From contig CAVWXQ010000014.1 in NCBI GenBank assembly GCA_963759005.1, positions 23,655 through 87,654 on the forward strand: DNA of 64,000 nt, read 5' to 3'. The first letter of the stretch is position 1; every line of letters starts with the position of its first letter. The DNA comes from an uncultured Gammaproteobacteria bacterium (GTDB taxonomy: Bacteria > Pseudomonadota > Gammaproteobacteria > SZUA-229). The notes below the pieces were generated by a model. The model had not been told where the DNA came from, searched no databases, and saw only the letters and a list, made by a program, of their open reading frames with translations. Shown here piece after piece: positions 1 through 40,564 of the stretch. The position numbers and the translations under genes were made by a program.

Positions 1-373
1 TCCTCAGCACACGTGCCAGGCTGATCTCGTCGAAGGCAGGGTGTTTGCGCCCGTTCTCGTGAACATGACCGTAGACCTTGGTCAGTTCGCTCCAGCGGAT
101 ATCCGGCGGCTGCACGCCACCCTCGGGGCGGCCCAGGCCATCGGGGCCGTGGCAACTCGCACAGGGCACAGCGCTGGCCGGCAACGATACCCCTTCCGTG
201 CCTACGATGGCGGTGATTTGCCCATCAGTAGAACTGGTACCCTGCAGGTAGATTTGTTTGCCCCGGCTCTGTGCCGCGTCCGGAGCTGCCGAAACCAGGT
301 CCGGACCAAGAACCATCGTTAGTCCGACCACGGCAAGTGCGAGTCGTTGGCGGATGCCGTATGCTGAGCTCAT
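1..373 (-). CDS. c-type cytochrome, partial (3' end runs off window start)
   Basis: Minus-strand ORF with ATG at 371-373. Translation MSSAYGIRQRLALAVVGLTMV... looks like a signal peptide and carries the heme motif CASCH. Not in the ORF track because it is open at the window edge. Confidence 0.6.
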   Translation of the reverse strand, partial: MSSAYGIRQRLALAVVGLTMVLGPDLVSAAPDAAQSRGKQIYLQGTSSTDGQITAIVGTEGVSLPASAVPCASCHGPDGLGRPEGGVQPPDIRWSELTKVYGHVHENGRKHPAFDEISLARVLR

Positions 374-1006
374 TCTGGACTTTCTTCCGCCAGGTCGCGC
401 ATCTTGTTCGCGATATCCGGCGGCGTAAGCATCGGCATCACACGGGTCCAGTGTTTGGTGATCGTGTTGCCAGCCAGCATCAGCGTGGTGTGCGATTCGA
501 TATCGGGCGTGTACTGGCCCAGCCGCTTGATCAGGAACTCGATGTTGTCTTTCTCACCCGTCAGGAAAATCCAGCGGCTCTCGTCCACGCTCTGCTTTTT
601 GGCGAACGCTTTCATCGCTTCCGGGGTGTCGCGCTCCGGGTCGACGCTGAGCGTCACGTACCAGACTTCATCCTTGATCGACGGCACCATCGCTGCGCGC
701 GCCTGCTTGAGCTTCTGTGCCTGCATCGGGCAGGCGAATTCGCAGTTGGTGAAGATGAAACTGATCAACACCACGCGGCCCTTCAACACGTCGCTGTAGA
801 AACGCTGTTTTTTGCCGTTCTGGTCGATCACCTCGGTGTCGGTGAAATAGTTGCGTGCCTTTTCCTCTGCTGCCGCGTCACTGGACGGTATTTGACACAG
901 CTGCAGCACTGGACAGGGGAACACTATCCTTAGACAGGACAGCTTGCGGAAGCAGTGCCAGGCCAAGACACAGCACTACTATTAGATTACTCAACTTTTT
1001 CATCAT
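370..1006 (-). CDS. SCO1/SenC family copper chaperone, probable frameshift near N-terminus
   Basis: Thioredoxin-like Sco motif FTNCEFACP in the 370..966 ORF. An ATG-ATG at 1006/1003 sits right after the upstream gene stop and encodes the signal/anchor MMKKLSNLIVVLCLGLALLP, but in another frame that ends in a stop. Confidence 0.65.
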
Positions 1007-1699
1007 TTAACCTCCTGCTGCAACGTTGCGTGCAGCCTGTAATGCATTGACCTGCTCCACCAGCCGGTCCGGACTCGGAAAACCGAAGAAACGTGACCAT
1101 TCGCCGGTCTGACCATCGCCGACCAGCACCATGGCCGGGTGGTTCTCGAAATTTGGTGTATAGGCGCCGAGGCCGTCGAGCACCTTGTCCATCGTCCGCT
1201 TGCCGCCGGTCAGCCAGATCCAGCCCGGTTCGGCCTTGTGGATAGCCGCGTAGGCCTTGAGCCGCTGCGGTGTGTCGCGCACGGGGTCGACGCTGACCGA
1301 AACCAGCACGACCTCGTCACCGAGCTGGTCGCCGAGCTTGTTCTGCACCTGGCCGAACACGGCCGAGATCACCGGACACACCGTGGTGCAACTCGTGTAA
1401 ATGAAATCCATGACCACGATGCGGTCGCCGATCACGTCGCTGACGAATTTCATTTCGTCGCCGTGCTGGTCCATCAGCACCAGGTCCAGCAGTTCCACCT
1501 CGGTAGTCTTGGCCGGTTCGGCCGGCTTGTTCATCATCGCCTTGTGGTGGGCGTGGGGATCGTCGTCGCCGCTCGCTGCGTGATCATGATGCTCGTGATG
1601 TTCGTGCCCGCTGTCTTCTGCTTGGACGTTCAGCGCAAGCGTACCCGCGGCAATAAACAACACCGCTAATATCATATAATTCTTACATTTATAAAACAT
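1007..1699 (-). CDS. SCO1/SenC family protein with His-rich N-terminal region
   Basis: Motif YTSCTTVCP (CxxxC). His-rich stretch HEHHEHHDHA...HAHH. Signal peptide present. Confidence 0.8.
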   Translation of the reverse strand: MFYKCKNYMILAVLFIAAGTLALNVQAEDSGHEHHEHHDHAASGDDDPHAHHKAMMNKPAEPAKTTEVELLDLVLMDQHGDEMKFVSDVIGDRIVVMDFIYTSCTTVCPVISAVFGQVQNKLGDQLGDEVVLVSVSVDPVRDTPQRLKAYAAIHKAEPGWIWLTGGKRTMDKVLDGLGAYTPNFENHPAMVLVGDGQTGEWSRFFGFPSPDRLVEQVNALQAARNVAAGG

Positions 1700-1725
1700 T
1701 TTTAATCTCCACTCTCAATTCTCAA

Positions 1726-1812
1726 GCCCCCTCTCCGCCTGGGCGAGGGTCAGGGTGAGGAAAAAATATTACCCCCTCATCCTGTCCTTCTCCCCAGGGG
1801 AGAAGGGACCTT
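1726..1812. repeat. REP-like multi-hairpin intergenic element, copy 1
   Basis: Stems ccctc/gaggg, gagggtcagggtgagg/cctcatcctgtccttc and ccttctcc/ggagaagg. ORF-track translations such as PSPLPKGEG come from the repeat, not from a gene. Confidence 0.5.
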
Positions 1813-1888
1813 CTTTCTGGCTGTCTCGCGTGCTCGCGGGTGCTTCGCAAACGCTCCAACCCAACGCACGCTCCTGCTTCCAGCGCGC

Positions 1889-1975
1889 CCCCTCTCCTTT
1901 GGGGAGAGGGCTGGGGTGAGGGGAAAAATTCCCTACCCTCGTCCGGCTCTTCTCCCAACGGAGAAGAGATCTTCT
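1889..1975. repeat. REP-like multi-hairpin intergenic element, copy 2
   Basis: ccctctcc-N5-ggagaggg and ctcttctcc-N5-gagaagag hairpins. About 65% similar to copy 1. Confidence 0.5.
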
Positions 1976-2011
1976 GCCGAACAGCACGCAGACGCACACC
2001 GCAGCGTAATT

Positions 2012-2974
2012 CTATTTGTCCTCCGGCCGCTCCAGCGCGATCAGGATCTCGACCTCGCCCTGCTCGCGCAGACGCACGATTTCCTGTTCAACCGCAGCTT
2101 CCATTCGTTCCTCGCGCATATGGTCTCGCAGCTTTTCTCGAATCTCGTCCAGCGGCAGCAGGTAGGCCTCCTTGTGCTCCTCCAGCTTCAGGATGTGCAC
2201 GCCGAAAGGGGTCTCCACCGGGTCCGATATTTCGCCGGGCTTCAGCACGAATGCGGCTGCTTCGAACGCCGGCGCCATTTCGCCGCGCTTGAACAGGCCG
2301 GTATCGCCGCCGTTCTGTCTGGTCGCATAATCATCCGAGAACTCGCGCGCGAGCTCCGCGAAATCTTCGCCCGCACGGGCCCGTTCCAGGATCGGCTTCA
2401 TCTGTTCGCGGATCGCGGCCTTGTCGTCGGTCGTGCCCATCGGCTTCCAGGTCAGCAGGATGTGGCGCACGCGCACCTGCTCCGGGAACGTTAGCCGGAC
2501 CTCATTGTCGCGATAGTATTGCTCGAGGTCTTCGTCGCTGACCTCGGCCACGCTCAGGCGGATGTCATCGAGGTATTTCTTGGCAGCGATCATGCGCCCC
2601 ACGTGCTCGCGGTAGCTCTCCGGCGTGAAACCCTCGCTCTGGATGCGCCGGTTGAATTCATCCGGCGTCTTGAACGGCTGGCTGATCTCGTCAATGGCCC
2701 TGTCGACCTCTGCATCGATGACCTCGATACCTTTGGTCTCCGCCGCCTGGCACACGAGCTCCTGCTTAATCATTTCGTCCATGGCTTCCTTGCGCAGCTT
2801 GGTTAGCCTGTTCAGGTGGTCGCCCCGCCCGGCCACGCTGATACCGTACGGGCGGCGGTATTCCTGGTAGAACGCGTTGAATCGCTCGTAGCTGACCTCG
2901 ACCCCGTTCACGCGCGCCGCGGTGCCGGGATAAATGCCCGTCGCCCAGACCGAGGCAACGGGCGTGACAAGCAA
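2012..2974 (-). CDS. PpiC/parvulin-type peptidyl-prolyl cis-trans isomerase (SurA/PrsA-like)
   Basis: Parvulin domain recognised in translation (for example ...GDTGLFKRGEMAPAFEAAAF...PFGVHIL). The signal peptide RILLLLLVTPVASVWA lies upstream in frame, but only a TTG start is available. Confidence 0.75.
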   Translation of the reverse strand: MLVTPVASVWATGIYPGTAARVNGVEVSYERFNAFYQEYRRPYGISVAGRGDHLNRLTKLRKEAMDEMIKQELVCQAAETKGIEVIDAEVDRAIDEISQPFKTPDEFNRRIQSEGFTPESYREHVGRMIAAKKYLDDIRLSVAEVSDEDLEQYYRDNEVRLTFPEQVRVRHILLTWKPMGTTDDKAAIREQMKPILERARAGEDFAELAREFSDDYATRQNGGDTGLFKRGEMAPAFEAAAFVLKPGEISDPVETPFGVHILKLEEHKEAYLLPLDEIREKLRDHMREERMEAAVEQEIVRLREQGEVEILIALERPEDK

Positions 2975-3013
2975 CAGCAGCAGAATTCGTAGCGCCGCAA
3001 AACCGCATGGCTG

Positions 3014-5068
3014 TCAGGAACCACCCTCTGCCGCAGCCTGTGGCGCGGTTTTGCCGCCCTGGGACGGCGTGCCCATCAGGCTGAAGAACGGTATGTCGTT
3101 ATACATCATCTTCTCCGACTGCGAGCCCACGAACACGTAATACGTTACCATGCGTTCGATTTTCACATCGGCCTCGTAGACGCCACCACCGAGCGATTTC
3201 GCCGGCACGACCGTGCGTCCGCGACCGTCTGAGCCGTAGTACAGCACCGTGACATCGGGAATATCATGCCGCGGCAGCGTGGTGCGTGGATCGGTCAGCT
3301 TGAACTTGACCTTGGTGCTCTCGCCCACCGGTATACGCCGATCGGTGTTCAGGTATTCGATGTCCATCGGCGCCGTGGTGACCTCGATGTCGGGATTGGG
3401 TTCCACCTTCGCGCTGAAGCAGTGCAGGAAGCGCGGTGTGTCCATCATGAAGGCGACGTCGTAGGTGCCCTCGATCGGGATCTTGACCCGCCCGACATAG
3501 ACGCCGGGCTCCTGTTCGCCGAGGCTGCGGTCGACGATCTCGATCGCGCGGGCCTCGTGGCCGTAGTTGCGGAACGCGCCCATGGGCGCGGCCATGCCCT
3601 CCATGTAATAATGAACCGTGCCCTCGGCCTGGTTCACGATGTAGGCCGCGGCCTGCTTGACCGAAGGCACGATGCTGTCGGCGATGCTGATGTCCGCGGC
3701 CGTGCCGGGCGGGCGCTGGCCGGCCGGGACGTAGGTGATCGGCGGGACGCTGTCCTCGTCGAGCTCGGACACCGGTATCAGGCCGACGTCCTGCGTGCCC
3801 AGCGAGCGCACATAGCCGTAGCCGCGCGTGAAGTTGACCTGGTACGGCTGCTTGCCGACGGTGATCGAGTGGGCGAGCTGGTCCTTGGAGGCGTCGATCG
3901 CGAACACCAGGTTCTCGATCGGGTTGACCACGAGCCCCCAGCGACCGTCCTGCGAGAAGCGCATCGGGCCCAGGCCCGGCTTCGCCTCGATGCGGGCGCG
4001 AATCTCGTGCTTGTCGGCATCGATCACGCTGATGATGCCGGTCTTGCCGTCGGCCACGTAGACCGCGTCGCCCAGCGGCGAGTACGCAATCGAGATCGGT
4101 ATCGGCCCGGTTTCGAGGTCCTTGACCTTCTTCAGGGACTGCACGTCGATCACCGAAACCGTTCCCGTGTCGCGGTTGGTCACGAACGCGTAACTGTCAT
4201 CTTCGTTGAACGTGATCTCGTGGTGCCCCGTGCCGGTCGCAATGAACGCGACCTTTTTGAGGCTCTCGGTATCGATCACGGTCACCCCGCTGTCGGCGGC
4301 TTCGTTCGAATTGTTGCCGACCCAGAGGTAGCGCTCGTCCCCCTGCAGCACGGCCCGCGTCGGGTTGTAGCCGGCCTCGATATTGTTCACGACCTTGAAC
4401 GTCTCGGTATCGACCAGCGCGACCATGTCGGCGGTCGGCATGGACACGAACAGGCGCTTCTGGTCTTCGGTCTTGGCCCAGTCCGCGCCGGGCCGGTCGA
4501 GGCTGATCTGGGCGAACAGGTTGGTGATGCCGGTAATGCCGACGGCAGGGTCGATCACCGAGATCGAATCATCGCGGTTCAAGACCAGCAGGAAGTGGCT
4601 GTTCAGGTCGATCATCGGGCGCACGCCGACGATGCCCTGCAGATAGGTCGAAACCCGGTCCTCGCAGCTCATCGGTCTTTCACCCTTGGCTTCCCAGGCC
4701 AGGGCCAGGTCCATCCAGGCGGCCGGGTAGCGTCCCTTGATCGGTTCGCCGGTGTTGGCATCGGTGATGCGGAAGCTCACGTCGGCCCAGTCGGCCGCAA
4801 TCACCTTGTCGGCCGTTGCATCCGTCGGACGCGTTGAGAACTCGACCACAACACCCTCGCGGCTGATGCGGTTAAGCTCGTCTTGTACAGCGGCGGCTTC
4901 GGAGCCAGCGTCTGCGCTTTGCGGCACGCTGGCGGTAGCAGCAGCGTTATCAGCGGCCGCGATGGTTTCGGCGCCGGCAGGGGTGCTCGGCGAGCAGCCC
5001 TGCAATGCGGTGGACATCAGCAGGGCAAGTGTTGCCCCCTTTAGTAAGGTATTCAGTGAAAATTGCAC
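3014..5068 (-). CDS. YVTN-family beta-propeller repeat lipoprotein
   Basis: Lipobox LQGC. Repeated roughly 40-aa units ending ...VTNRDTGTVSVID / ...YVADGKTGIISVID. Confidence 0.7.
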   Translation of the reverse strand: MQFSLNTLLKGATLALLMSTALQGCSPSTPAGAETIAAADNAAATASVPQSADAGSEAAAVQDELNRISREGVVVEFSTRPTDATADKVIAADWADVSFRITDANTGEPIKGRYPAAWMDLALAWEAKGERPMSCEDRVSTYLQGIVGVRPMIDLNSHFLLVLNRDDSISVIDPAVGITGITNLFAQISLDRPGADWAKTEDQKRLFVSMPTADMVALVDTETFKVVNNIEAGYNPTRAVLQGDERYLWVGNNSNEAADSGVTVIDTESLKKVAFIATGTGHHEITFNEDDSYAFVTNRDTGTVSVIDVQSLKKVKDLETGPIPISIAYSPLGDAVYVADGKTGIISVIDADKHEIRARIEAKPGLGPMRFSQDGRWGLVVNPIENLVFAIDASKDQLAHSITVGKQPYQVNFTRGYGYVRSLGTQDVGLIPVSELDEDSVPPITYVPAGQRPPGTAADISIADSIVPSVKQAAAYIVNQAEGTVHYYMEGMAAPMGAFRNYGHEARAIEIVDRSLGEQEPGVYVGRVKIPIEGTYDVAFMMDTPRFLHCFSAKVEPNPDIEVTTAPMDIEYLNTDRRIPVGESTKVKFKLTDPRTTLPRHDIPDVTVLYYGSDGRGRTVVPAKSLGGGVYEADVKIERMVTYYVFVGSQSEKMMYNDIPFFSLMGTPSQGGKTAPQAAAEGGS

Positions 5069-5530
5069 AGATCAACTCCTCGGTCGTTTTATCTATTTGT
5101 TCAGCGTGGAAAGTATTCCATGTCGGGTGGCGAGGTGTCGAAGAAGGATGTGAACCCTTTTTCACCATGCACGGCAGGTTGAAACATGGACTCTCCTTAT
5201 CGTTACGCTGTTACAGTCATATGATTATAAACTATCCGGTCATCACCAGGGCAGACTTGTGAACACGCTTTGATTCCCATCGCAGCAGTCAACATCGATC
5301 AGTTCTGATTGCCATCCTGGCCCGACAGTATTGCCGTGTTTCCTCAACACTGTGTTTGCCATATTACTGATGCCCATTAGAGGCGAGAGTTCAACCGCTT
5401 ATAGCTTGCTGAAGCTAAGCCTAAGTTGGGACATATTACAGCTGCGGTGCGCACGGCGCACCCTACGTTTCCTGTCACTTCTATCCAGCCCTCAGCCGGA
5501 TGTAATCGGTACGCATAGCGCAGCCTGCTT

Positions 5531-5559
5531 CAAAAAAATGGGTGCAGCCTCCTGGCTGC
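5531..5559 (-). terminator. rho-independent terminator after the multicopper oxidase gene
   Basis: On the minus strand: stop (5571-5573), 11 nt, hairpin gcagcc-agga-ggctgc, then acccattttttt. Confidence 0.5.
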
Positions 5560-5570
5560 ATCCACATGTT

Positions 5571-8500
5571 TTATTGTGCGGCCCGTCCGTTGGGCCGCAG
5601 ATGGAATGCTACTACGGCGTCGCTGGACTCCACCCTCAGGATACCGAACTGGCCGTTGCGGTTACCGTTGGGCTGTAGTCGCGGAACAGGTAGTCACCCT
5701 CAACCGCACCGCTACCACCGGCATTGAACAGGATCGGCCAGTGACCGTAGGCGTGGCCCATGCCTTCCTCGCCGCCCATGTACTTGGCCGATCGGGTTCA
5801 GACCGAGCGCGATGGAATCGACCGTGCCATGAGTCCAGACACAGGCCTGTCAGACCGAGGTCGTTCTCGACCCGGGCAGACGAACGGATCGCGCTGCCAC
5901 ACGTGGCCGTGCAGGATGAAGGTACCGTCACGGTCAGCCGAGGCGCCGTTGAGCACGTGGATGCGGCTGGCCTGCTCCGGCAGTCGCCCGGAACACCGGT
6001 GTTGCCGGATCACCCGCTGCGCTCACGCCCGGGATCGCCGGGACTGCGTTGGGCTCGCCGATGGTCAGCAGGTTGGCGTACATCGCCTGCGCGTTCGGGA
6101 TGCGCCGAAGCTGTTGGGCGTACCGGCGTTGCCGAAGGGCACATCCGGCGGCAGTTTGAAGCGGAACCAGCTCGGCTCCATGCCGTAGTTGAAGCCGGCG
6201 AAGCCGCTGTCCTCGGCGCCTTCACGGCCCAGCTCACCCTGGTGGATGTTGGCGATCGCGGTGCCGTCCTTCCAGCGGATATTGGCGATCTTGTGACCGA
6301 TCGCAGGTTCTCGCGGAAGTCACCGCCGGAACCGGCTCCACCGACAGGCGCGGTCACCGTGACCTGGGCGCGGGTCAGGCGTGTCCAGCCGGATTCAGCG
6401 TGCCGTCTGCATTGACCGCCATCTGGCCATCAGGCACCTGGGTGTCCTCTGCCACGGTTGAACCGGGCGGCAGGATCGACAGCGCACCGAACAGACCCTT
6501 CTGCGGCTGCTTGACGCGGTCCGCCGACAGCAGGTTGCTGGCGCCGAACTCGATCGGGGTAGCCACCAGCTCGAGCAGCTCGGTGTTGCCCTGCTGACCG
6601 ACCGTGTTGTAGGTCAGGTCGCCCGCGTACCAGCGGTAGGTCCTGGAACTCGCCGGGCGCGACGATCTGCTGGCCCGGCGCGTTCTGGCCGACCAGGACA
6701 CCGTCGTCACGGCTGGCGTCGTACTCGACCAGCTGGGCGTGCAGACCGACGTGGCTCGACGGCCGGATCAGGTTGTTGTTGAAGAAGTGCATCTCCGGCA
6801 ATGCCGGTGACCGGATCAACCTGGATCCTGCGCTTGACGATCCACATCATGTCCTGCCAGCCGGCCAGGTCGGGCGCGACCGCCGGGATGCGGTTGCGCA
6901 GCGTGGTCTCGATGCAGTCGCCCGCGTTGGCGCGCAGCGCGATCGGCTCGACCGGAGCAGTATCGCTCAGACGAACCGGACAGGTTGGTGCAGCCAATGG
7001 GTCAGCTAACGGCAGGCCCGTTACCGGATCCAGACAACCGGGGTCGGCCGGATCTATAACGACCAGATCACTGGTGCGGACGTACATCATCGCGGTCGGA
7101 TCGTTCAGCGGACCGTCGCCGCCCTGCAGCGTGACCGGCGGCTCGCCGCCTTCACCCGGCAGGGTCAGCGTCGGTACCGTGGTACCACGACGGTTGTAGA
7201 CCAGCGTGCCGCCGGCGGTATTCAGCGGACCACCGTTGTTGTCGCGATACCGTCACCGTTGGAGTCGCCACCCACGTTGGCCGGGATGGTCACACCGAGG
7301 TTGTTCGGCAGCACGTCGTTGGCCAGTACCGCGGTCACGTCATAAGCCGACCACGTTCGGCGGTCATCCGGGCAGACGCCGTTGAACTCGTTGGCGTTGA
7401 CCACGCGGCGGTTGCCGGCCGGGTTGCTCGGCAGCTCGACGAGGTCCTGTTGACGGTTGCCGTAGGCGCGCAGGATACCCCAGGGGCCGGTCCAGAAACC
7501 GTCGCGGGTGGCGTCGGTCGCGTACAGGTAGTCGACCGGTTGCCGACCTGATTCCGGATCCGGGTTGATCGGGATCTGCAGGCTGAACTGCTCGGAGATA
7601 CCGTGCGACTGGAAGTTACGCCAGCCGGAGTTCGGCGAGCGGCCGAAGCCGGAGCCGTTGGACAGCCACTTCATGCCGTGCACGGTCGCCTGGTGCTGCT
7701 CCTCGGTGGCGCCGACCTGGATCTTGATCTTGACGTCGTCACCCTCGTAGGCACGCATGATCGGCGTGATCGGGTCACCGCGCCGGCGGTCGCAGTTGAT
7801 GCCGTCGCCGGTGTTGCCCTGGCAGTACGTCGCCGGGGTCCGGTAGCCGGGCGGCATGTCGCCGAAGCTGGTGTTCAGCTGCGGGATCGCGCGGTCGCTG
7901 CGGCTCTGCAGCGCGAACGCGAGGTCGCCGGCTTCACCGGCCGCCTGGGTACCGTTCTGGCCGTCAGGACCGGCCGCGTTCGGATCGAACACGCGCAGGC
8001 CCACCGGCTCGTTGCGGTAGTTGACCACGAACATCGAGCTGTGGCTGATGTTGATGGCCTCGGCGCAGGGACGCGGCACGTTCGGATCGGCATTGCCGGC
8101 CGGTCCCGGGCAGACGCCCTCGGCCGTGACCATGTCCGGGAACGGCACCGACTTCAGCTTCAGCGGCGGATTGATCGCCTGCTGCCAGGTGTCCTGCATC
8201 GTCGGGCGCGAAGGCCGTGGTGACGTCGAACGCGAACGGGCTGATCGATGTGCGTCTGGACCGGACGACCATCCGCGATCGGCACCGACGTAGACACCGG
8301 CCTCGTAGGCGTGCTGGAAGTCGCTCATCTCGAAGTAGAACTCGCGATGATCCGGGATGTTCTCCGAGCCCGTGGTGCTACCCAGTGGCGCCTGGCAGGC
8401 GTCATGATGATCGCCTGCCAGGTGGTCGGGCCACCGTCGTGCACGCGGAGCCGGTCTGCCGTCGACCAGCGCGCCGATCTGCGCGCCGCTCTCGTTGTGC

Positions 8501-11500
8501 ACCCAGGTCGAACCGGCCGGCTCGGCCAGGATGGTCGAGTACAGGCCGATCTGCTGGAAGGTCGACGGACCGTAGTGGTCGTGCGAGAAGGTCAGGCCGA
8601 GGCCGCGGTCCACACCGGCCACGTTGACCAGCGGGTCCATCAGGATGCGCTGGATGTGGTGCGCGCGCCGCAGTATTCACCATAGGGCTCGACGTCACAG
8701 TGCCGCCGACACCGGTCACCGAAGAACGGATGCGGCTTGCGGCGTGCAGCTCGGTCACGCCAGCGCACGACGCTGCTGCCCGGGTCACCGGTGTCGATGG
8801 TCGGCACCGGGGCCAGATCGGTCAGGTCAACCGTGGTGGTTGGCCACCGCAGCGACCAGGTCGGGCGGCAGGTCGTCGGCCTTGCCGAGCGCGACCAGCA
8901 GGTCAACCAGGTTGGGCGCTTGACCGGCCAACGCGTTGAAGTGGTTGATCGCGTTGATGCGCTCCTCCACCATGCCCGGCGCCAGCGTGCCGTCCTCGTA
9001 GTTCCAGCCGTTGGCCGCACCGTCGTTGGTGGTCAGGTCCCACTTCGGCAGGTGGATGTGCTGACCGATGATGTCGGTCGGCGTGCGCACCTGGAAGTCG
9101 TCCAGCTCGAACTCCTTCGGCACCAGGTTGGTGTGCAGGATCTTGCCGCAGTCGAAGGTGTTGAAGCGCATCACCAGCGGCTCCGGCGGACGCTGCTTGG
9201 CGATGGTCGGCGCCACGTCGTCCCACAGCGCGATGATGCGCTCCTGCGGGTAGTGCTAGCCGACCTTGTTGAACACCGCGTCGATCTGCACGTTGGCGAC
9301 CTTGTAGGTGCGCGGGTTCTCGCAGGTCCAAGTCCGAGCGCGCCCATGTTGCCGCAGCGTACCCTGGTCGTTGTCACCATCGAACCAGTGGCCGATGACA
9401 CCAGCGATCAGCGGGGTGCCCGCGTCGTCGATGCAGGGATCCTGGAAGGGACCGCCCGGTACCGGCAGGGCACCGTTGAGCACGAAGCCGCCGCTGCCGT
9501 CGGGGTTGGCCACGCCGGTTGTCGCGTCACACAGAGCCTCCGAAACGGTGCCGTCACGGTTCTGCTTGTAGGTGTCGCGGCAGCGCACGGCGTGGTAGGC
9601 CATGCGACCTGCTCCAGTCGTCGGTGCCGATCTCGGGGAAGTACACCGGCTGGGCGACCTCGACTTCCTTGGCGAAGTCGAGGCGGCTGTTGGTGTCCAG
9701 CGAGAGGCCGCCGGAGGAGTAGCCGAGCAGGTTGTGGCGCGGCAGGCCGCCGTCCCAGCCGCCGGCCTGCGCCGGTGCGATATCCGTTCGCTGTCGCGCC
9801 GGCCTCGGTCAGCATGTCCAGCGGCGGGGTCGGCATGCGCTGGCCAACCGTGCCCTTCGGGCAGCGGAGTCGTCTGCATGTCGCGTCATCACGCCGCACT
9901 CGTTGCCGGCCAGCCAGAACGGGAAGCCGGGGCTGACGTCGTCGGCGGTACCGAGGTCAGCGTCGGGACCGGCCACGGCGTGCGATAGTCGATCACGGCC
10001 TGGCTCGGACGTTCGGGGATGCCATCCGGGCCTGTCCTGCCGCCCAGCACGCCGAAGTTACCGCGGTCGACCGCGACGACCTTGACCGGGGCAGGCATAC
10101 GGCATGGCCTTGCCGGGCAGCGGCACGATGGCCGGAATCGGCCAGCCGTCGGGCAGCTCGGCGTCGGGCAGCGCGCGGGCGCCGGCCGCCGGCTTACCGC
10201 TGCGCAGCGCCCAACGCGTGTCATGGAAGCCGTCACCGTCGGGTCGGCGTTGCCCGCCATCTGCATCACGGCGCTGTCGAGACGGCCAGCAGGCTGCCGG
10301 TTTCGAACGTGTCCTGGATGCGGATGTGGTACCACATGCCCTGCGCAAAGTGCGGGTAGAAGTGGCAGTGGAAGATCGCGTCGCCCGCGGTCTTGTTGCG
10401 GTTGCCGACGCCGCCGTTGTTTATCTCGTAGGTGTGGCCCGAGCCCGGCATGATTTCCTGGGCGTCCAGGTAGTTGGCGTTGTCGTCGTTCGGGTTGAAC
10501 AGCCACTGGTGGTTGTGCAGGTGGAAGATGTGCTGCTCGAACGCACCGACGTGGATGTTGCGGATCTTGACGAAGTCACCGGTGTAGGAGTGGTGCACGT
10601 TGGACGGGTCTTCCTGGTACAGCGCGTAGTTGCCCGGGATCGGCGGGTTGGCACCGATCGGCGATCACCGCCATTGGACCGGGACGTCGATCGTCGAACT
10701 GACGCCAGCAGGCCGGACGTCAGGATGTCGGTCGGGTCGCACTGCTCGATGCCGGTGTTGGCCGGGAAGTTGACCAGCATGGCCGGGTCGCCGACGGTCT
10801 GCGAGGCGAGGAAGAACTCCTCGTAGGCGCAGTCGGTGCAGTCGTGCATCGGGCCGGTGTGCAGGCGGTTGGCGATGATTTCGGAACCGATGCCGCCGGA
10901 GCCGTAGTTGATCATGAACTGGTCCTTGACGCCGGCCAGGGTGTAGTTCAGCACCGGGTTGCCGTACCAGCGCGGGAACACCTGCGAGTTGGTCTGCTCG
11001 TCGTGGAAGATCGAGGTGAACTCGCGGAACGGCTCGAGCCGGTTCGGCAGGCTCGGCACGTTGTTGCCGACGCTCTCCAGCGGGTAGGTGCTGGCCGGGA
11101 ACGTGTACCGTCGGCATTCGGGCCGGCGATGATCGCGTTGATGTCGCTGTGCACCAGCTCGTTGCCGGCTGTCAGCATGTTCAGGATCGGCAGGCCGGCC
11201 TTGCCCTCGGAGATCCAGGGCTCGACGTTCGGGTAGGTCGCCTCGTAGTCGATGATCGGCTGGCCGAGGCCGGAGTCGTGTCGGTGGTGGCCAGGCGCAT
11301 TTCTTCCTCGGTCACCATGCTGCGGTACATGCGCGCACCGACGGGCTGGACGTTCAGCTCGCCGAACATGCCGATGCCGAGGTTGCCGCTGTTCTGCTCG
11401 CTGCCGAGGGTGGCGCCGTAGCTGTTGATCACGAAGGCGCCTTCGTGCGGGGTGTACAGGTTGTAGGTCCTGGCTCTCGTTCGGTGCTGCCATGCCGAGG

Positions 11501-12069
11501 CCGCAGTTGCGCTGTCCGGCGTCAGTCGGGCCAATGTTCGCGCCGGGGTTGTTACCGACCATGCTGCCGTCGTCGGCGATGTCATCGACCAGCTTCGGTG
11601 CCCGAGGCGTGGAAGCCGGCGCAGCGGCCCGCGACCTGGTCGTTGTTGATCAGCTGGTCCTGCTGCGCATTGTTCGGATTGGCGACCGGCGCCAGCAGGT
11701 TGGTGAAGTTGACCGTCAGGCAGCTGCCCGCGACCGAACGCACCACCAGCGGACGGGGCCGCTTGTCGGGGCGCAGCTCGACGTTGCCTGCGGTACAGGC
11801 TGCCCTGCGAACAGGGCACGCCGCGTCGGTCCCGTCGATGACATCGCGCTCGAGCGCGTAGGTGATCCAGTTCGGGTTCTGCGCACCGAGGCGGTTGAAC
11901 ACCGTCGGGTTGTCCAGCACCACCACGTTGGCGGTTATGGTATTGCTGTACAGCTAACCGCTGCCTGCGCACCCGGCACAAACAGCATGGACAGCATTAC
12001 CATGCATAATATAACAACAGCGAGCAAAATATTATTGTTCGCCATTGGACTGGTGGCTTGAGTTTTCAT
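5571..12069 (-). pseudogene. giant multicopper oxidase (MnxG/MofA-like), about 2160 codons, at least 12 frameshifts
   Basis: ATG at 12067-12069 with RBS ggagag and signal peptide MKTQATSPMANNNILLAVVILCMVMLSMLFVPGAQA. Cupredoxin-like pieces are spread over three frames, including FHCHFYPHFAQGMWYH (T1 Cu site), IFHLHNHQW, IGQHIHLPKWD and HGMKW. Confidence 0.7.
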
Positions 12070-12117
12070 TATAGCTCTCCTATTTCTTTTTGGAGCAACG
12101 GATTCTGTCTAAACCTG

Positions 12118-12154
12118 TTGACCCACATTTGTGTTGACCATTTGACAATGACCG
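12118..12154. promoter_or_regulatory. TTGACC/TTGACA direct repeats in AT-rich region upstream of the oxidase gene
   Basis: ttgaccN10ttgaccN2ttgacaN2tgacc within a 290-bp 35%-GC island between GC-rich genes. Confidence 0.25.
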
Positions 12155-12401
12155 GTGAACTTGTTTCAGCTGAATTTGCCGTTTTCGAGTACTAAAAAAC
12201 AACGGAAATGTCGCAAGTCCAACATTTAGACCAAGTATAAACATATCGAATGTGAGCAAATTTGGTAACCGACTATAGGTACTGTTTGTACCTGATAAAA
12301 AGTCCAGTTTTAAGCAGTACTTTAGTACAGTAAGCTAGCCACAATGGGGGATGCGGGCATGGCAGGGTTTTATTTTACAGGCAAAAAAACCCGACTATAA
12401 T

Positions 12402-13121
12402 CTACTCACTTACCGAGGTGGTGCTGAACAAATAGCCAAGCCAGGGTATATCCATCAACAGCGGGATACCCGCCCTGCCCTCGTTGCGAGTTTCGAGGAT
12501 CAGGCCACCGAGCACCACAGTCGCACCGCTCTGCACCACGACACTGCTGCTGATGCTGCGCTGTGAAATCGCCACATTGCCGCCGCCGCCGACAGCCGGC
12601 TCTGAACCGGGAAGGCTGACTTCCTGGCTGATTTCCATGGTGACCTGGCCGCCGGCGTTGATGCGCGGAGTGACGGACAACAAGGTGCCGGTGTCACGAA
12701 ACTGCACCTCAGAGACCACCGGGGCATCCGGGTTTGTGGTACTCTGGGAACTGCGCACGGTGACCGGTATCTGGTCACCCACGCGGATATTCGCGGTATG
12801 GTTGTCCAGCACCATGATCTGCGGCGCCGAGAGGAATTTGACATCGGTCTTACTGGCCAGCAGGTCAATAAACATCCTGGCATCATTGCTGCTCGAAAAC
12901 GTGGCCAGTGTCAGGCCATCACCACCAGCAGCGGTGGGCACCGGTGCGTTGAAGCCCAGACTGGTGTTGCCGCCGGAGAGGAACCAGCGCACGCCGTAAT
13001 CCAGCGCATTGGAAAGGGTCACCTCGGCGATGGTGGCCTCGATCAGCACCTGGCGAGGCTGCTCATCGAGCTGTTTAATGACGGCTTCGATGCCACGGTA
13101 ATCCCTGGGACTGGCCAGCAA
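12402..13121 (-). pseudogene. secretin (GspD/PilQ family) C-terminal domain fragment
   Basis: VLIEATIAEV, SAPQIMVLDNHTANIRVGDQIPV and IPLLMDIPWLGYLF match secretin C-domain motifs. Frame closed by tag/tga immediately upstream, so the N-terminal two-thirds are absent. Confidence 0.75.
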
Positions 13122-13127
13122 TCGTCA

Positions 13128-13476
13128 CTACCTGAAAACGACCAGCGAAGCGCTGGCCGCCGCCAGCCTGCAAGGTATCGTCAAGAAAATCGCGGCATCG
13201 ACAGGCATGGAAGTGCTAAGCACCCAGATCCTGCCTGCAGGCGAGCAAGAGGGTTTCAAGCGTGTCACCCTGAAGGTTCGTATGCGCGGCGTGCTGGAAA
13301 ACACAGTAAAGGCATTCCACGCCATGGAGACCGGCCAGCCGTATCTGTTTCTGGACAATGTCTCAATCCGCGGCCTTGCCCGGCGTACAGGCAACTATGG
13401 CAAAGGCAAAGTCAACTATGATCAAATGCTGAATGTGGATTTTGATCTCATCGGCTACATGCAGCAGCAATCATGA
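13128..13476 (+). pseudogene. PilO/GspM-like C-terminal fragment
   Basis: Open frame ...LQGIVKKIAASTGMEVLSTQILPAGEQEGFKRVTLKVRMRG...YLFLDNVSIRG with no N-terminal TM part. Abuts the inverted secretin fragment. Confidence 0.35.
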
Positions 13477-13530
13477 AAATGTTCTCTGATAGGAAATTAC
13501 CTCACTCCCTACCTGCTAACCACCTGCGCG

Positions 13531-13947
13531 TTGTCGGCTGGTGTACTGGCAATCGAGAGCGGTAACCTGATCGAGACACAAGGCCATGCCTCGCCCGAAA
13601 CACAGCCTGCTGTCGATCCGATTGAGCAGGCAAAATTCACTGCATCAGGGATTGCCGCATTCAGCGAAATCACCGAACGACCGTTGTTCAGGGAAGGTCG
13701 TGAGCCACCGAGCGAACCCACAGCCACACCCGTGGCAGCCAGGCCGTCACCACTACGCCTGAAGCTGGAAGGCGTGGCCATTACACCTGGATCAAAAATT
13801 GCCATACTGCGCGATCTCAGCAACAACAAGATGCTGCATCTCGAAACTGGCATGAAACACCAGGGCTGGGAACTCACCTCTGTTACCGACACCGTCGCCA
13901 CATTCAAGCTTGGCGAACAGAGCCAGGAACTGACGCTAAAAAAATAG
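13531..13947 (+). CDS. PilP / GspC-HR-like pilus/secretion assembly protein
   Basis: ITERPLF motif followed by a beta-rich C-terminus ...LEGVAITPGSKIAILRD...LTSVTDTVATFKL. Confidence 0.4.
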   Translation: MSAGVLAIESGNLIETQGHASPETQPAVDPIEQAKFTASGIAAFSEITERPLFREGREPPSEPTATPVAARPSPLRLKLEGVAITPGSKIAILRDLSNNKMLHLETGMKHQGWELTSVTDTVATFKLGEQSQELTLKK

Positions 13948-14013
13948 GCAAGAATACCCGTAGCAAATAACAGGTGACAACATCAGTTATCTATGCACAA
14001 TTGATAGATACAG

Positions 14014-14263
14014 CACATCAAGCCCGGATATTTCATAGGAACGCTGCTAATCTTGCTTAACATTATGATTATTATAAGAAATAGCAGTATATTAGAGAAG
14101 TACACTATGTACCTGACAACGCTATGCAGTTTTTGGAAAAATATCAGCGGCCATTTTGTACGATACCCCTGTAACCATAGCTACGGCTATGCTTTTCGGC
14201 GAATAGTACAAACTGACTCACTGATATTTCCCCAAAATTCTGCATTCCTATGAAATATCCGGG
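14014..14263 (+). mobile_element. MITE copy 1 (about 250 bp, 19-bp TIR CCCGGATATTTCATAGGAA)
   Basis: Perfect terminal inverted repeats. Near-identical copies at 21903, 33239 and 40022. Confidence 0.7.
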
Positions 14264-14289
14264 CTAGCACAATCGAAGCAATGCGCCAG

Positions 14290-14660
14290 GCATGATAACG
14301 AAGTGTCAATTTTTTGACACACGTAATGTCATACTTATTACTCAAAAATATAAAGCTATCCGACTATCAACAATGTATATTTCCTGTCTTTATGACGAAT
14401 TGTTTTACACATTACGTATAAACGATATACTTATATTGCTTTTCCTATTGATAATTATAATATATTTATATCTAGCACATATATTGCCTATTTTTCATAT
14501 GCATCAGGCATGACAAAGAGCGCCAGCTTTGACATACAAAGTGCCAGATATGGCATACGAATGTCATGTTTAGTATACAAAAATATACTTAATATTGTTT
14601 ATACTATTGATAATTATAATATATTTATATCTGGCACATATATTGCTTTTATTTAGAAGC
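14290..14660. repeat. degenerate tandem duplication (about 160-230 bp units) in AT-rich region
   Basis: tattgataattataatatatttatatctRgcacatatattgc at 14447 and 14607, and gcatgaYaa...gtcat... at 14292 and 14512. Confidence 0.4.
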
Positions 14661-14745: not shown

Positions 14746-15408
14746 ATGGCGCCCAAAAAAAAGGAGTTATCGATGTCTAAAACTATCCACGTTGCGATTT
14801 GTGATTATTGCTCTACAATTCGATACGGAATTCAGCATATTTTAAACAGGGATGCCAATATCAGCCTGGTTGCTGAAGCAAGCTCACCCAAAGAAATACT
14901 CACCAAATTTACCAGCCTTGATCTGGATGTCATCCTGATTGATCCTGGTGAAAACAGACAGACAGGGTTCGATTGTTTACGTAAATTTCGTGAATTAAAG
15001 CCCAATACCAAAACCATCCTCTTTACCAGTAGTTATAGCGATAAAAATCTGATAGTAGAAGCCATTCAAACAGGCGTTCAAGGTTACCTGCTCAAACAAG
15101 CTGAAAGTGAGGAAATCATAAATGCCATTTATGCTGTCGATCAGGGTGACACGATCCTGGCACCCAGTGTAACAACAATATTATTAGAATATATGCAACA
15201 TAAACAACACCAACTGCAAGCAAACCTAAGTAATCGTGAGCAAGAAGTTCTGGACCAGATAGCCCAGGGCAAAACCAATGGCGACATAGCGAATGCACTA
15301 TTCATCAGTATACGTACTGTTAAATTTCATGTCAGCTCTATTTTGGCAAAATTGAATCTAAAAAATCGAACCGAAGCTGCTTTATGGGGCAATAAGTCCC
15401 CCTGTTAA
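14746..15408 (+). CDS. NarL/FixJ (LuxR-type) response regulator, atypical receiver acid pocket
   Basis: REC domain plus C-terminal HTH LSNREQEVL...IRTVKFHVSSIL. The receiver N-terminus reads DYCS where DD is expected. Confidence 0.75.
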   Translation: MAPKKKELSMSKTIHVAICDYCSTIRYGIQHILNRDANISLVAEASSPKEILTKFTSLDLDVILIDPGENRQTGFDCLRKFRELKPNTKTILFTSSYSDKNLIVEAIQTGVQGYLLKQAESEEIINAIYAVDQGDTILAPSVTTILLEYMQHKQHQLQANLSNREQEVLDQIAQGKTNGDIANALFISIRTVKFHVSSILAKLNLKNRTEAALWGNKSPC

Positions 15409-15608: not shown

Positions 15609-18600
15609 TTACACGGAAGCTGGGATGATAATCCCGCGTTGGGCCTCAACATCGCTTCCCGGCTCTCGGGCATTCGCCTCACTACGCCATAGCCGTTCCT
15701 GATCGAAGTCCTTCAAGATCCAAAGCAACCAGGCATGATTTCGTTGCCGGGTGGACATGGGTTTGGCGCCCAGCCAAACGGTAACCGGAAATACCAGCCA
15801 TGTGGCAAGCAGAGCGATGAGTAAAATGCTGATTGATGCTTCAAGCGACCATAGTGCCAGGCTAAAAGCCAGGGCTATGGCGGTATAGCCCCAGGTTTTT
15901 TTGAGCGCAGCCATGAATGAAACATGCTGCGTTTCCCTTTCGACCTCCGCCTGGACCTTCCATGTAGCTTGACCAATGAGTAAGCTTTTCACTGCGAGCC
16001 ATAGGCGAAGCGGGCTGTAGAGAACATCAGGCATATAAACAAAAGGCGTTGTAAGTATCTCGAGCCAGGCAGCGATGAATCCCCGCAAGGCCGAATTGAT
16101 ATTTCCAAGCGCCTCGGTACGTTGGCGCAAGAATGAGAGCCTGACCCCCGCTATAAAATTGAGTGATGGCTTATACATTTTAGGAAGCAGCACCAGACCC
16201 AGGATAATAAAATAGAAGTGAACTTTCATGAGCACCGGGTTTGTGTGAATCAAAATCGACTGGCCAAATGTTTCAATGAAAATCCATAGAAAGAAGAGCG
16301 GTGCTCGAAACAGCGCACGTGATGAAAAATGGGCGATATAGTGTGCAGTGTACGGAACAGCCGGCACTTTAATACTGTAGGATAAATTGTCGCTGTGGCT
16401 GTTACCGAAAAGCTTTTTAGCAAGTACGAAAGCGCGACCAATCCATTTTGGCGATAACAATACAGCATTCATCAGGTCACCCTGGGTCCAGCGAGTGAGC
16501 TGCGCCTGACGATTGAACGCGTTAGATGGCACACCTTCGTAGAAAAATACCTGCGGCACATAGGCCGGATTTAGATACAGTGCTTCAATCGTGTCATGGC
16601 TGAGAATATCAAGAGGCAAGGTTTCCCTGGGCGCTTGAGGTGTGCCAATAAACTGTTCAATGAATACGTCATTGTCTGCAAGTCCTTTGCCATAGTGACC
16701 GAATCGACCAAAAGCACGGAACTGTGCTTCCGGCATCTTAGACACGGTATGATGAGACAAAATTTCACGAAAAGCATGCCAGGTATCCATATTGGAAACA
16801 AGCACACCCGACTGGAAGAATCCCCGTTCGGGATTGGCGGCGGCGATCTCAATCAGTGTTCGTATGGCATCGGCGGGAACGCGATTGTCTGCGTCAAGCA
16901 GCACAGTGTAGCGGTAGCTGATATCCTCGTCTGTTCCGTAGGTCTGCCCTGCTTGCTTCAGATCGATTATATCCTGCAACCCACGCGCCTCCAACGCATG
17001 TGTCATTTTCTCGAACTCGTGTTTTAACAACGCTTGATCATTTTCAAGGTTCGAACAAAAACCGAATACTGGCAACTCAGCTGAGCGACCGCGATTGCCA
17101 TATTTTTCTTCGAGATAGGTAAATGGTCGGTCAATTCCTCGTGAACCGAGAAGCATTAAATCCTGGTACTGCCCGGCTTTTTTCAGCGTTGTGGACGTGC
17201 GATGAATATATTTAAAGCCCCGCACAACGCGCTCCACCGAGATCTCGATCGCCTTTTCCAGTTTTTCTCCCGAATAACCCTGTTGTTGCCAACGACTAAA
17301 AAGTCCGCACCAGAAATCCGCACGCAGACAATCGTTGTTTAATTTCATTGCTTCCATATGGCTAATCTTGTGAATTTCCGCCTCTGCAAGCAAGGTGCTG
17401 CGGATCCGCTCACGGTAGTTATCACGCAGGTCCATTTCGTGCTGAACGACAGACAAGGAAGTGGATGCGCTAACTAGTACTGCCGTCAGGTTCCCGTTAA
17501 TGTCCAGATTATCCAGGTAAGAGCGGTACATATTGTCAAAGGCTTCATCACACTCCCGAGCATGATTAGAGCGCAACATGTATGCAACAGTCGTTCTGTG
17601 ACTTGTTGGAATACCATCGGGCATGTCCACACGTCGACACTGAAGAGGCCCTTTTAACAACCGGAACCCGATTAAAAACAATAGCTGGGTAATCACATCC
17701 GCCACCCCCCATATAAGGTAGCCGATAGCGAAAGTTACAAAACCAGCAATGAACACATTTGAAAACGTCCAGTCGATCGTCAATGCATAAAGAACTGTCA
17801 AGCTGATAGTGATGAGTCCTACACACAAAAAATACAGATAGGCTGATATCGGCATTTTTGTTTGAGCTTTACCCGGCTGCTGGGTTGACGATGGCTGGGT
17901 TGACGATGGCTTGCTTTGGAATGCCGCGCCCCGCCCGACCCCTGTTCGACGGCGTAGACCGTCATAAAGGCCAGCCCAGATAGCCCTGAAACCCTGCCAA
18001 TTCATAGAACTAAGCGTCCACAGAGAATACAGGCAGATGTGTCGTCCCAATTTGACGAATTGAACGGGTCGGAGACGCGCAGGACAGGAATACAATGTCA
18101 TCATCAGCACCATATTGCGCAACAGATAGTAGATTCGCAAAGGCGACAATATACCCTGCTCCGAACCACCGAGGCTCTGGTGGCAGTCATGTAACACTTT
18201 ACCTTCAACAGGTACCAATTTAACTTCATAGCCCTTACGTCGAACACGCTGAAACCACTCAACATCCTCGTAGCCGAAGAACAGCCGCTCATCAAAATAG
18301 CCAAGCTCAATGAAGGCCTCTGTCTTGATGAGTGCAGTGGCCGTGGCCACACCGTCCACTGATTTGTGATTGTTGTACATATCACGTAATCCCCAATCGG
18401 CTTCCATCTGTGCCGGGAACCTCCATCCGTCAGTCCACCAGCTTGTCCAAAGACGCTCCGGCTCCTGTGCGAAATGCAATAGAGGCGCAAACACCAACTC
18501 TTCGGGGCGTGATGTCTCGGCCCGCTGAACCAGATCCTCAATTACCTGTGGATCGACGGTGACATCATTATCCAGTGTCAGGATATATTTAGGTGGAGTT

Positions 18601-21830: not shown

Positions 21831-21902
21831 CTACACACTAACCATTACCAACACCTTGTTATTCTGTGGATTGAATAACTACATTGAGGAATCTCTAATT
21901 AA

Positions 21903-22318
21903 CCCGGATATTTCATAGTAATGCAGAATTTTGGGGAAATATCAGTGAGTCAGTTTGTACGATTCACCGATAAAATCGTAGGAACGATTTTACATGAGCG
22001 AAGCGAGCCCGTAGGGTTAATGGGCAGGAGGCCCGTAATTAAAGCATAGCCGTTCGGCACACCGCTTCGCTGCTCCATGCATTGCCCTACTACCGTACTT
22101 CCTATACATAAGCTATGGTTACAGGGGAATCGTACAAAATGGCCGCTGATATTTTTCCAAAAACTGCATATACTGCCATGGATGGCAGGTAGTAGGGCAA
22201 TGCAGGAGCTATTGCCGAGCATTGTCAGGTACATAGTGTACTTCTCTAATATACTGCTATTTCTTATAATAATCATAGCGTTAAGCAAGATTAGCAGCGT
22301 TCCTATGAAATATCCGGG
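21903..22318 (-). mobile_element. MITE copy 2 with about 170 bp of nested insertions
   Basis: Same TIRs in inverse orientation. Contains extra internal segments that are inverted repeats of each other (gcattgccctactacc / ggtagtagggcaatgc). The terminal ...GGGTT overlaps the TAA stop of the ada-like gene. Confidence 0.7.
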
Positions 22319-33124: not shown

Positions 33125-33238
33125 CAGGAAATAAAAAGTCGGTTACAAAACCACTAAGTTAAGCGCAGGAAAACCAGGTCAGCAATAGTCACTGTATCTA
33201 TTTAGTGCTGCAGTCTCATGAGGGAATGCTTATACGAG

Positions 33239-33395
33239 CCCAGATATTTCATAGGAACGCTACAGCTTTAACTTAACATTATGATTGTATTGAGAAATAT
33301 TGGCATATTAGCAAAGCACACTATGTACCCGATAACGCTCGGCAATTGCTCCTGCATTGCCCTACTACCTGCCATCCATGGCAGTATATGCAGTT
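33239..33395 (+). mobile_element. MITE copy 3 (5' portion only, variant with internal insert)
   Basis: Left TIR cccagatatttcataggaacgc plus an internal segment identical to the insert in copy 2. The right end is missing. Confidence 0.5.
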
Positions 33396-40021: not shown

Positions 40022-40276
40022 CCCGGTTATTTCATAGTAACGCTGCTAATCTTGCTTAACACTATGATTATTATAACAAATAGCAATATATTAGAAAAAC
40101 ACACTATGTACCTGACAACGCTATGCAGTTTTTGGAAAAATATCAGCGGCCATTTTCTACGATTCCCCTGCAACCATAGCTACGGCTATGCTTTTCGGCG
40201 AATCGTACAAACTGACTCACTGACCGATTTTAATAAAACATGACCCCATCGTCTGCATTCCTATGAAATATCCGGG
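40022..40276 (+). mobile_element. MITE copy 4
   Basis: Both TIRs intact. Terminal ...GGGTT overlaps the TAA stop of ORF 40277-40564. Confidence 0.7.
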
Positions 40277-40564
40277 TTAAGGTAATGTTAATGCTTTTAT
40301 TAACTCATGTAGTGAGTTCCATGTAATTTCAACATCATCCTTGAACTCTTCCCATGTTTCATCACCAGCCTGTTTTAGTCGCTGAAGTTTTTTATGAGCG
40401 GCTTCTAGCTCCAGTTTCACTTCTTCGATTAACGTGTAGTACTCAAGCTGCAAATTGGTTTCTTCCTGTTCGGCTTTTTCCTTAAACGCCGCAAGCCTGG
40501 TTTTCCACTCATCAAGCTGTGCCTGCATATTCTTTTCATATACGTCTCTAATGCTCATATTCAT
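40277..40564 (-). CDS. small coiled-coil protein, hypothetical
   Basis: 95 aa, E/K/Q-rich heptad-like sequence. Confidence 0.3.
   Translation of the reverse strand: MNMSIRDVYEKNMQAQLDEWKTRLAAFKEKAEQEETNLQLEYYTLIEEVKLELEAAHKKLQRLKQAGDETWEEFKDDVEITWNSLHELIKALTLP

Follow-up and report, generated by a model that had tools for sequence, protein, structure and literature searches.

Remnant of a type II secretion gene cluster, very probably left by a single deletion of about 9.5 kb, in an uncultured gammaproteobacterium

Introduction

Gene clusters for the type II secretion system (T2SS) of the Klebsiella/E. coli type are arranged in the order C-D-E...N, and the xps cluster of Xanthomonas in the order E...N-D. 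In the type IV pilus cluster pilMNOPQ, the gene of the PilQ-type secretin follows pilP on the same strand. The locus described here is from an uncultured gammaproteobacterium, was analysed within a 64,000-nucleotide stretch of DNA (the window), and carries a fragment of a secretin gene head to head with a fragment of gspM. A preliminary description took it for a secretion/pilus system broken by inversion plus deletion. The present analysis agrees with a broken system and a loss of DNA, but not with an inversion. The region is very probably a non-functional remnant of a T2SS (Gsp) cluster after one deletion of ~9.5 kb, the native order of the cluster being gspD divergent from gspE-N.

Comparative material

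The comparison is based on a sister strain and on loci of related genomes. The sister contig (ERZ25039508 contig_11485; 72 kb; loci L003 and L084) is from a separate assembly and was reached via the protein cluster of the neighbouring glycosyltransferase and a GspE homology search. It is 92-97 % identical to the window at the nucleotide level over host and T2SS genes. In addition, species-representative genomes were scanned with the secretin fragment, which provided 80 loci (L004-L083), and a panel of Gsp proteins was then mapped onto these loci. The features of the region are collected in Table 1.

Table 1. Features of the T2SS remnant and its surroundings in the window
Feature	Position	Strand	Description
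Giant multicopper-oxidase-like gene	~5800-12069	-	Homologues of 2,100+ aa with multicopper-oxidase signature
AT-rich spacer, 344 bp	12070..12413		36-43 % GC; between truncated 3' end of gspD and start codon of giant gene
Breakpoint B	12413/12414		Right edge of spacer; homology to sister gspD ends exactly at 12414
gspD, internal fragment of T2SS secretin gene	12414..13117	-	Pfam, TIGR02517, sister alignment
Putative deletion junction A	13110..13117		Microhomology (A)CTGGCCA, 7-8 bp; common to gspM and antisense gspD
gspM 3' fragment, XpsM/T2SSM_b type	13111..13476	+	Codons ~75-195 and stop; NF040576, PF10741
'gspN', short GspC/XpsN-like gene	13473..13947	+	157 aa: transmembrane helix, linker, HR domain
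MITE-like element, 245 bp	14021..14265		24-nt terminal inverted repeats, 96 % complementary; gspN-to-regulator spacer
LuxR/GerE-type response-regulator gene, ~44 % GC host	14746..15408	+	Right edge of T2SS island, both strains

Compositional setting

The GC profile of the window is stepped, with ~66 % at positions 1-11,990, 36-43 % at 12,000-12,400, ~58 % at 12,400-13,950 and ~44 % from 14,000 to the end. The 44 % GC part has ordinary unbroken genes, including those for a 1,115-aa glycosyltransferase, an AcrB-type pump with its outer-membrane partner, a DegP-like protease and a hybrid sensor kinase. On the sister contig, gspD and gspE-N are 60 % GC compared to 44.6 % for the flanking ftsK, ald, trxB-like and femAB-like genes, and the source genomes of the closest T2SS relatives are 56-67 % GC. 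Based on this composition and the GC content of the relatives, the T2SS cluster is probably a horizontally acquired island of ~60 % GC in a gammaproteobacterial genome of ~44 % GC. The island edges are not marked by an integrase, a tRNA or direct repeats. The window as a whole was free of tRNAs and Rfam families, and the promoter and terminator scans returned nothing meaningful.

The response-regulator gene at the right edge of the island shares 88 % nucleotide identity with L003 12729-13700, and its sister homologue has the Pfam domains Response_reg and GerE. Upstream of this gene, in very AT-rich DNA (20-36 % GC), are two direct repeats of 63 nt (14433-14495 and 14592-14654) that are 89 % identical and 159 nt apart. 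In the sister strain, an extra insert of ~4 kb and 57-61 % GC lies between the glycosyltransferase and the regulator (L003 8679-12728) and includes an HTH_17 gene, a peptidase C39 fragment and a c-type cytochrome. This insert, which the window does not have, is further evidence of foreign-DNA turnover in the neighbourhood.

Gene fragments of the T2SS

The secretin fragment resides in a mechanical open reading frame (ORF) of 239 codons (12402-13121, minus strand) with two stop codons directly on its 5' side, as the preliminary description had reported. The ORF encodes a C-terminal secretin domain, with a match to Pfam Secretin (PF00263) at E 2.9e-43 over profile positions 2-152 of 169. It scores 225 bits against the GspD model TIGR02517 (positions 315-573 of 600) and 141 bits against the PilQ model. 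The GspD score is under the equivalog cutoff of 351, and profile positions 1-314 and 574-600 are missing. When searched by tblastn with the sister protein, the fragment corresponds to residues ~344-580 of the 628-aa ORF. It lacks N0-N2, some of N3 and the final ~48 residues, and falls short of the full-length architecture of signal peptide, N0-N3 and complete secretin domain. Thus, the piece is a secretin fragment as first described but is cut at its 3' side as well. In the protein collection, the 239-aa ORF forms a singleton cluster.

The gspM fragment lies in a plus-strand frame that is open from 13102 and encodes the C-terminal 121 residues of GspM, equivalent to the 3' two-thirds of the gene. 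It matches NF040576 (GspM_XpsM) with 100.3 bits (cutoff 60; positions 67-180 of 180) and PF10741 (T2SSM_b) with 55 bits (cutoff 21.7; E 8e-15). The periplasmic C-terminal domain is, therefore, present above the curated cutoff, while the N-terminal cytoplasmic segment and transmembrane helix are missing with residues 1-74. An N-terminally truncated PilO/GspM-like C-terminus had been predicted on this strand, and the profile matches bear this out. The alignment with the sister gspM starts at codon ~75 (window 13110-13111), preceded by antisense gspD. Rather than being separated by 7 nt, as had been thought, the homologies of the secretin and GspM pieces overlap in the (A)CTGGCCA motif.

The 'gspN' start codon overlaps the stop codon of gspM (ATGA), and this native overlap is kept. 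The gene encodes a GspC/XpsN-like protein with an HR-domain fold, which docks on the N0 domain of the secretin. Compared to the sister strain and all homologues, the frame, believed intact in the preliminary description, has one G too many at 13488; it is shifted after codon 5, which splits the start codon from the transmembrane segment and HR domain. This G may stem from a sequencing error. No Pfam match at E <= 0.01 was obtained for the window protein, and 26 of its 36 homologues match T2SSC (PF11356; best E 2.4e-9). Its scores against XpsN (NF041470; E 0.0018) and TIGR01713 (E 0.026) are both far under the cutoffs, and a profile of the GspC-like family searched against PDB sequences gave noise only. 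The HR-domain fold was instead recognised by a fold search. At the superfamily level the earlier domain assignments hold, but the genes are those of a T2SS (GspD, GspM and GspC-like) and not PilQ, PilO and PilP.

The secretin fragment is free of internal stops and indels, with a dN/dS of 0.076 (dS 0.17) in comparison with the sister. This ratio suggests that gspD was under purifying selection for most of the divergence of the two strains and, therefore, that the deletion described below is recent. The same intact frame and low dN/dS, together with the native overlap of the truncated gspM with gspN, speak for a functional minimal module, in which a truncated secretin stands alone or a GspM'-GspC pair is kept for another machine. 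This reading is scarcely tenable. The secretin fragment has no start codon in context, signal peptide, N0-N2 domains or last ~48 residues; GspM' is without its transmembrane segment; and the gspN frame is broken at codon 6. Also lost are the promoter region and every ATPase, platform and pseudopilin gene, and a recent deletion accounts for the low dN/dS.

Gene order in the sister strain and related genomes

In the sister strain, the ftsK, ald, trxB-like and femAB-like genes are followed by gspD on the minus strand (called as the 628-aa ORF), then by gspE, F, G, H, I, J, K, L, M and N in the opposite direction, the LuxR-type regulator and the glycosyltransferase. Nothing secretin-like is found past gspN. 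The gspD of this divergent pair is the 95 % identical orthologue (nucleotide level) of the window fragment, and a similar neighbourhood is found in 21 related genomes. In these 21 of the closest genome loci, which share 69-88 % identity with the secretin fragment, gspE is immediately upstream of gspD on the opposite strand; nine have the whole arrangement, with N to E facing away from D.

Where gspD lies relative to gspE-N depends on the clade. The divergent order is found in Woeseiaceae-like loci and unclassified Gammaproteobacteria, and a co-directional D-E...N order in Thiodiazotropha/Sedimenticolaceae and tubeworm symbionts. The Xps-like E...N-D order is found in Thiobacillus (L079-L082) and in four other loci (L070, L071, L072 and L075). 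In two metagenome-assembled genomes (L008 and L009), E-K is followed by an inverted L-M-N and then by D.

The order bears directly on the inversion proposed in the preliminary description. There, the secretin was expected to follow a pilP-like gene on the same strand (...gspM-gspN-secretin), and its C-terminal piece would have been flipped and moved upstream, with further deletions and with a MITE replacing the start of the secretin gene. The E...N-D order does exist in the more distant relatives listed above, and two 5'-truncated genes placed head to head are also what one inversion junction looks like. Such an inversion is nonetheless very improbable. The sister strain and the 21 closest relatives have gspD divergent from gspE, and the window aligns plus/plus with the sister on both sides of the gap. 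Neither a reciprocal inversion junction nor any other T2SS fragment (5' parts of gspD and gspM, or gspL-E) is present in the 64-kb window. The inversion reading presupposes a pilMNOPQ/Xps-type order, which is foreign to this lineage. No PilQ-type secretin follows a pilP on the same strand, and the expectation of a pilP-pilQ order is not applicable, since this is not a pilus locus.

The deletion junction

Positions 12414-13117 of the window align without gaps to L084 6884-7587 at 95.2 % nucleotide identity, and positions 13110-14005 align to L084 17042-17950 at 92 %, both plus/plus. The window is collinear with the sister contig and is missing L084 7588-17041, a segment of 9,454 bp that runs from the middle of gspD to the middle of gspM. 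As the alignment is collinear and plus/plus on both sides of the gap, one deletion explains the head-to-head junction; the secretin fragment keeps its native orientation relative to gspM and gspN, with no need for inversion.

The two sister copies of CTGGCCA are on the same DNA strand (L084 ~7581-7587 and ~17043-17050). The sister reads GCTGGCCAT at the gspD end of the missing segment and ACTGGCCAG at its gspM end, and the window retains one copy, GGGACTGGCCAGCAATCG. At the junction site, the gspD of a related genome (L004) reads ACTGGCCA. A microhomology of at least 7 nt is expected at a random junction with a chance of about 4e-4 by the authors' estimate. Microhomology of 7-8 bp at a junction is the usual mark of deletions by slippage or illegitimate recombination.

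The proposed course of events starts from the native order, in which gspD is divergent from gspE, F, G, H, I, J, K, L, M and N and the host response-regulator gene follows gspN. A single 9,454-bp deletion between the two same-strand (A)CTGGCCA copies would have taken ~1 kb from the 5' part of gspD, the divergent promoter region, and everything from gspE to the first ~74 codons of gspM, and would have left 5'-truncated gspD and gspM head to head. Judged from the junction sequence, the deletion may have been microhomology-mediated and RecA-independent, through either replication slippage or illegitimate recombination. Breakpoint B would mark another, independent event that removed the last ~48 codons of gspD and whatever came after them. 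The leftover pieces are predicted to have no function and to be in the course of being lost, as they could not assemble a secretion machine.

The exact patterns of junctions A and B are absent from the JGI metagenome contigs. Counting against the proposed deletion, no second contig with the same junction was found, and the deletion is seen on one contig. This also leaves room for an assembly artefact, in which the gspM/gspD junction, the junction to the 66 % GC block or both would be a mis-join or a collapsed structural variant of a locus that is in reality intact. Consistent with an artefact, the contig combines three GC tiers (66 %, 58 % and 44 %), frameshifts are dense in its high-GC part (where the giant gene changes frame at least 8 times), neither junction is on any independent contig, and the sister has host genes beyond gspD instead of the 66 % GC block. 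By contrast, junction A is in unique sequence and joins two collinear sites of one locus at a 7-8 bp microhomology, which is the signature of a biological deletion; assemblers need long overlaps, and 7 bp is too short. The host/T2SS boundary at the gspN side recurs in the independent assembly, and ORFs of all three GC tiers are on a single deposited contig of 141,219 bp (NCBI/ENA). An artefact is, on this evidence, unlikely.

Frameshifts are many in both assemblies. The gspM of the sister has an additional G and an additional 14 bp, its gspN has an additional T that differs from the one-nucleotide insertion of the window, and its host genes are split. These lesions are either the independent decay of one island in two strains or assembly errors; split secretin genes also occur on other contigs of the same project as the sister. 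Single-base frameshifts in either assembly may be consensus errors, but the 9.45-kb deletion is not of that kind.

The MITE-like element

The element between gspN and the regulator has the properties of a miniature inverted-repeat transposable element (MITE): it is small, has terminal inverted repeats, occurs in several copies and has no transposase ORF. The window has further copies at 40022-40279, 21900-22318 and 33237-33347, and the sister contig has one at L003 1653-2100; for the copy at 21900-22318, a counterpart is present in synteny on the sister contig. The copies share 24-nt termini (ACCCGGATATTTCATAGGAACGC...) and are of a short version (~245-258 bp) and a long version (~420-450 bp) with internal insertions. 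Two copies only are flanked by TA, which points to a target duplication and suggests an IS630/mariner-type origin.

The preliminary description was correct that a MITE is present, but not that it occupies the position where the secretin should start, as neither the sister strain nor any of the 21 divergent-order relatives has a secretin gene in the gspN-to-regulator spacer. The sister has no MITE at this site and still no secretin there; its spacer has a different 200-bp sequence, which is not what simple excision leaves. The MITE appears to be an insertion in the downstream spacer that is unrelated to the position of the secretin.

The left breakpoint and the 66 % GC block

At breakpoint B, the homology to gspD ends 150 nt before the stop codon, with ~48 codons gone. 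Searches with the AT-rich spacer by blastn (word size 7) and tblastx gave no match elsewhere in the window or in any of 84 related loci. Beyond gspD, the sister has host genes, and the window has the spacer and the 66 % GC block.

The giant gene has at least 8 frame changes relative to its homologues in two related loci (L023 and L001). Either the gene is a pseudogene in advanced decay or the 66 % GC block was assembled with many errors. In six relatives (L001, L020, L023, L025, L029 and L030), a homologue of the giant gene is found 4-6 kb downstream of gspD on the same strand. The GC content of the pair differs by no more than 3 points in these relatives, compared to 61 % for the gspD fragment and 67 % for the giant gene in the window. 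The linkage of gspD and the giant gene may be that of an ancestral larger island, or the giant gene may be a separate import. As the 66 % GC neighbour differs completely from that of the sister, the left junction could also be a chimeric join. A homology-facilitated import via gspD was considered for the left junction and rejected as its main account, since the 3' end of gspD is missing and is not continuous with donor sequence.

The signal-peptide-coding 5' end of the giant gene (11935-12069, minus strand) is AT-rich (~38 % GC) with host-like codons, and the remainder of the gene is 67 % GC. The switch in GC content is within the gene near 11,990, just ahead of a conserved AAVSC motif, and a frameshift follows directly. 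The rest of the 66 % GC block (positions 1-5068) has genes for two SCO1/SenC copper chaperones, a SurA-like PPIase and a 684-aa beta-propeller protein, and resembles a copper/oxidase accessory cluster. In one related locus (L014), the DNA upstream of gspD shows partial synteny with it.

With its compositional mosaic, and with neighbours that differ between two near-identical strains, the site may be one where foreign DNA turns over rapidly. A stronger form of this idea, in which the site is a hotspot where a low-GC gammaproteobacterium repeatedly imports and then dismantles DNA of high-GC sediment Gammaproteobacteria, is rather doubtful. If it were true, the window may retain an ancestral island of larger extent, or a second import for which gspD homology was the anchor; the scars of such events would be the T2SS remnant and the giant gene's AT-rich 5' end.

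Comparison with known systems

The deletion is ordinary gene decay, with nothing unusual in its mechanism, and the wider interest of the locus is limited to the rapid turnover of GC-rich foreign DNA at the site. For annotation, the ORFs should be flagged as gsp pseudogene fragments, and the strain should not be credited with this T2SS. The locus is also a worked example of how a close relative turns an apparently "scrambled" arrangement into one microhomology deletion. It further shows that it can be misleading to expect the gene order of pilMNOPQ or xps operons, as the placement of gspD differs between clades.

Compared to the T2SS (Gsp/Xps) clusters of Gammaproteobacteria, the window has only fragments, with GspD and GspM truncated. 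The GspC/XpsN-like protein is short (157 aa), has no PDZ or coiled-coil domain, and is frameshifted. Unlike the Klebsiella/E. coli-type T2SS and the Xanthomonas xps clusters, the clade of the window has gspD divergent from gspE. The locus also differs from the type IV pilus cluster pilMNOPQ, in that the secretin fragment scores higher as GspD than as PilQ, the GspM model is matched above its cutoff, and the sister locus has gspE, gspF, the pseudopilin genes G-K and gspL instead. The closest likeness is to the microhomology-mediated deletions that make bacterial pseudogenes: 9.45 kb appears to have been lost between same-strand repeats of 7-8 bp, with one copy of the repeat left behind.
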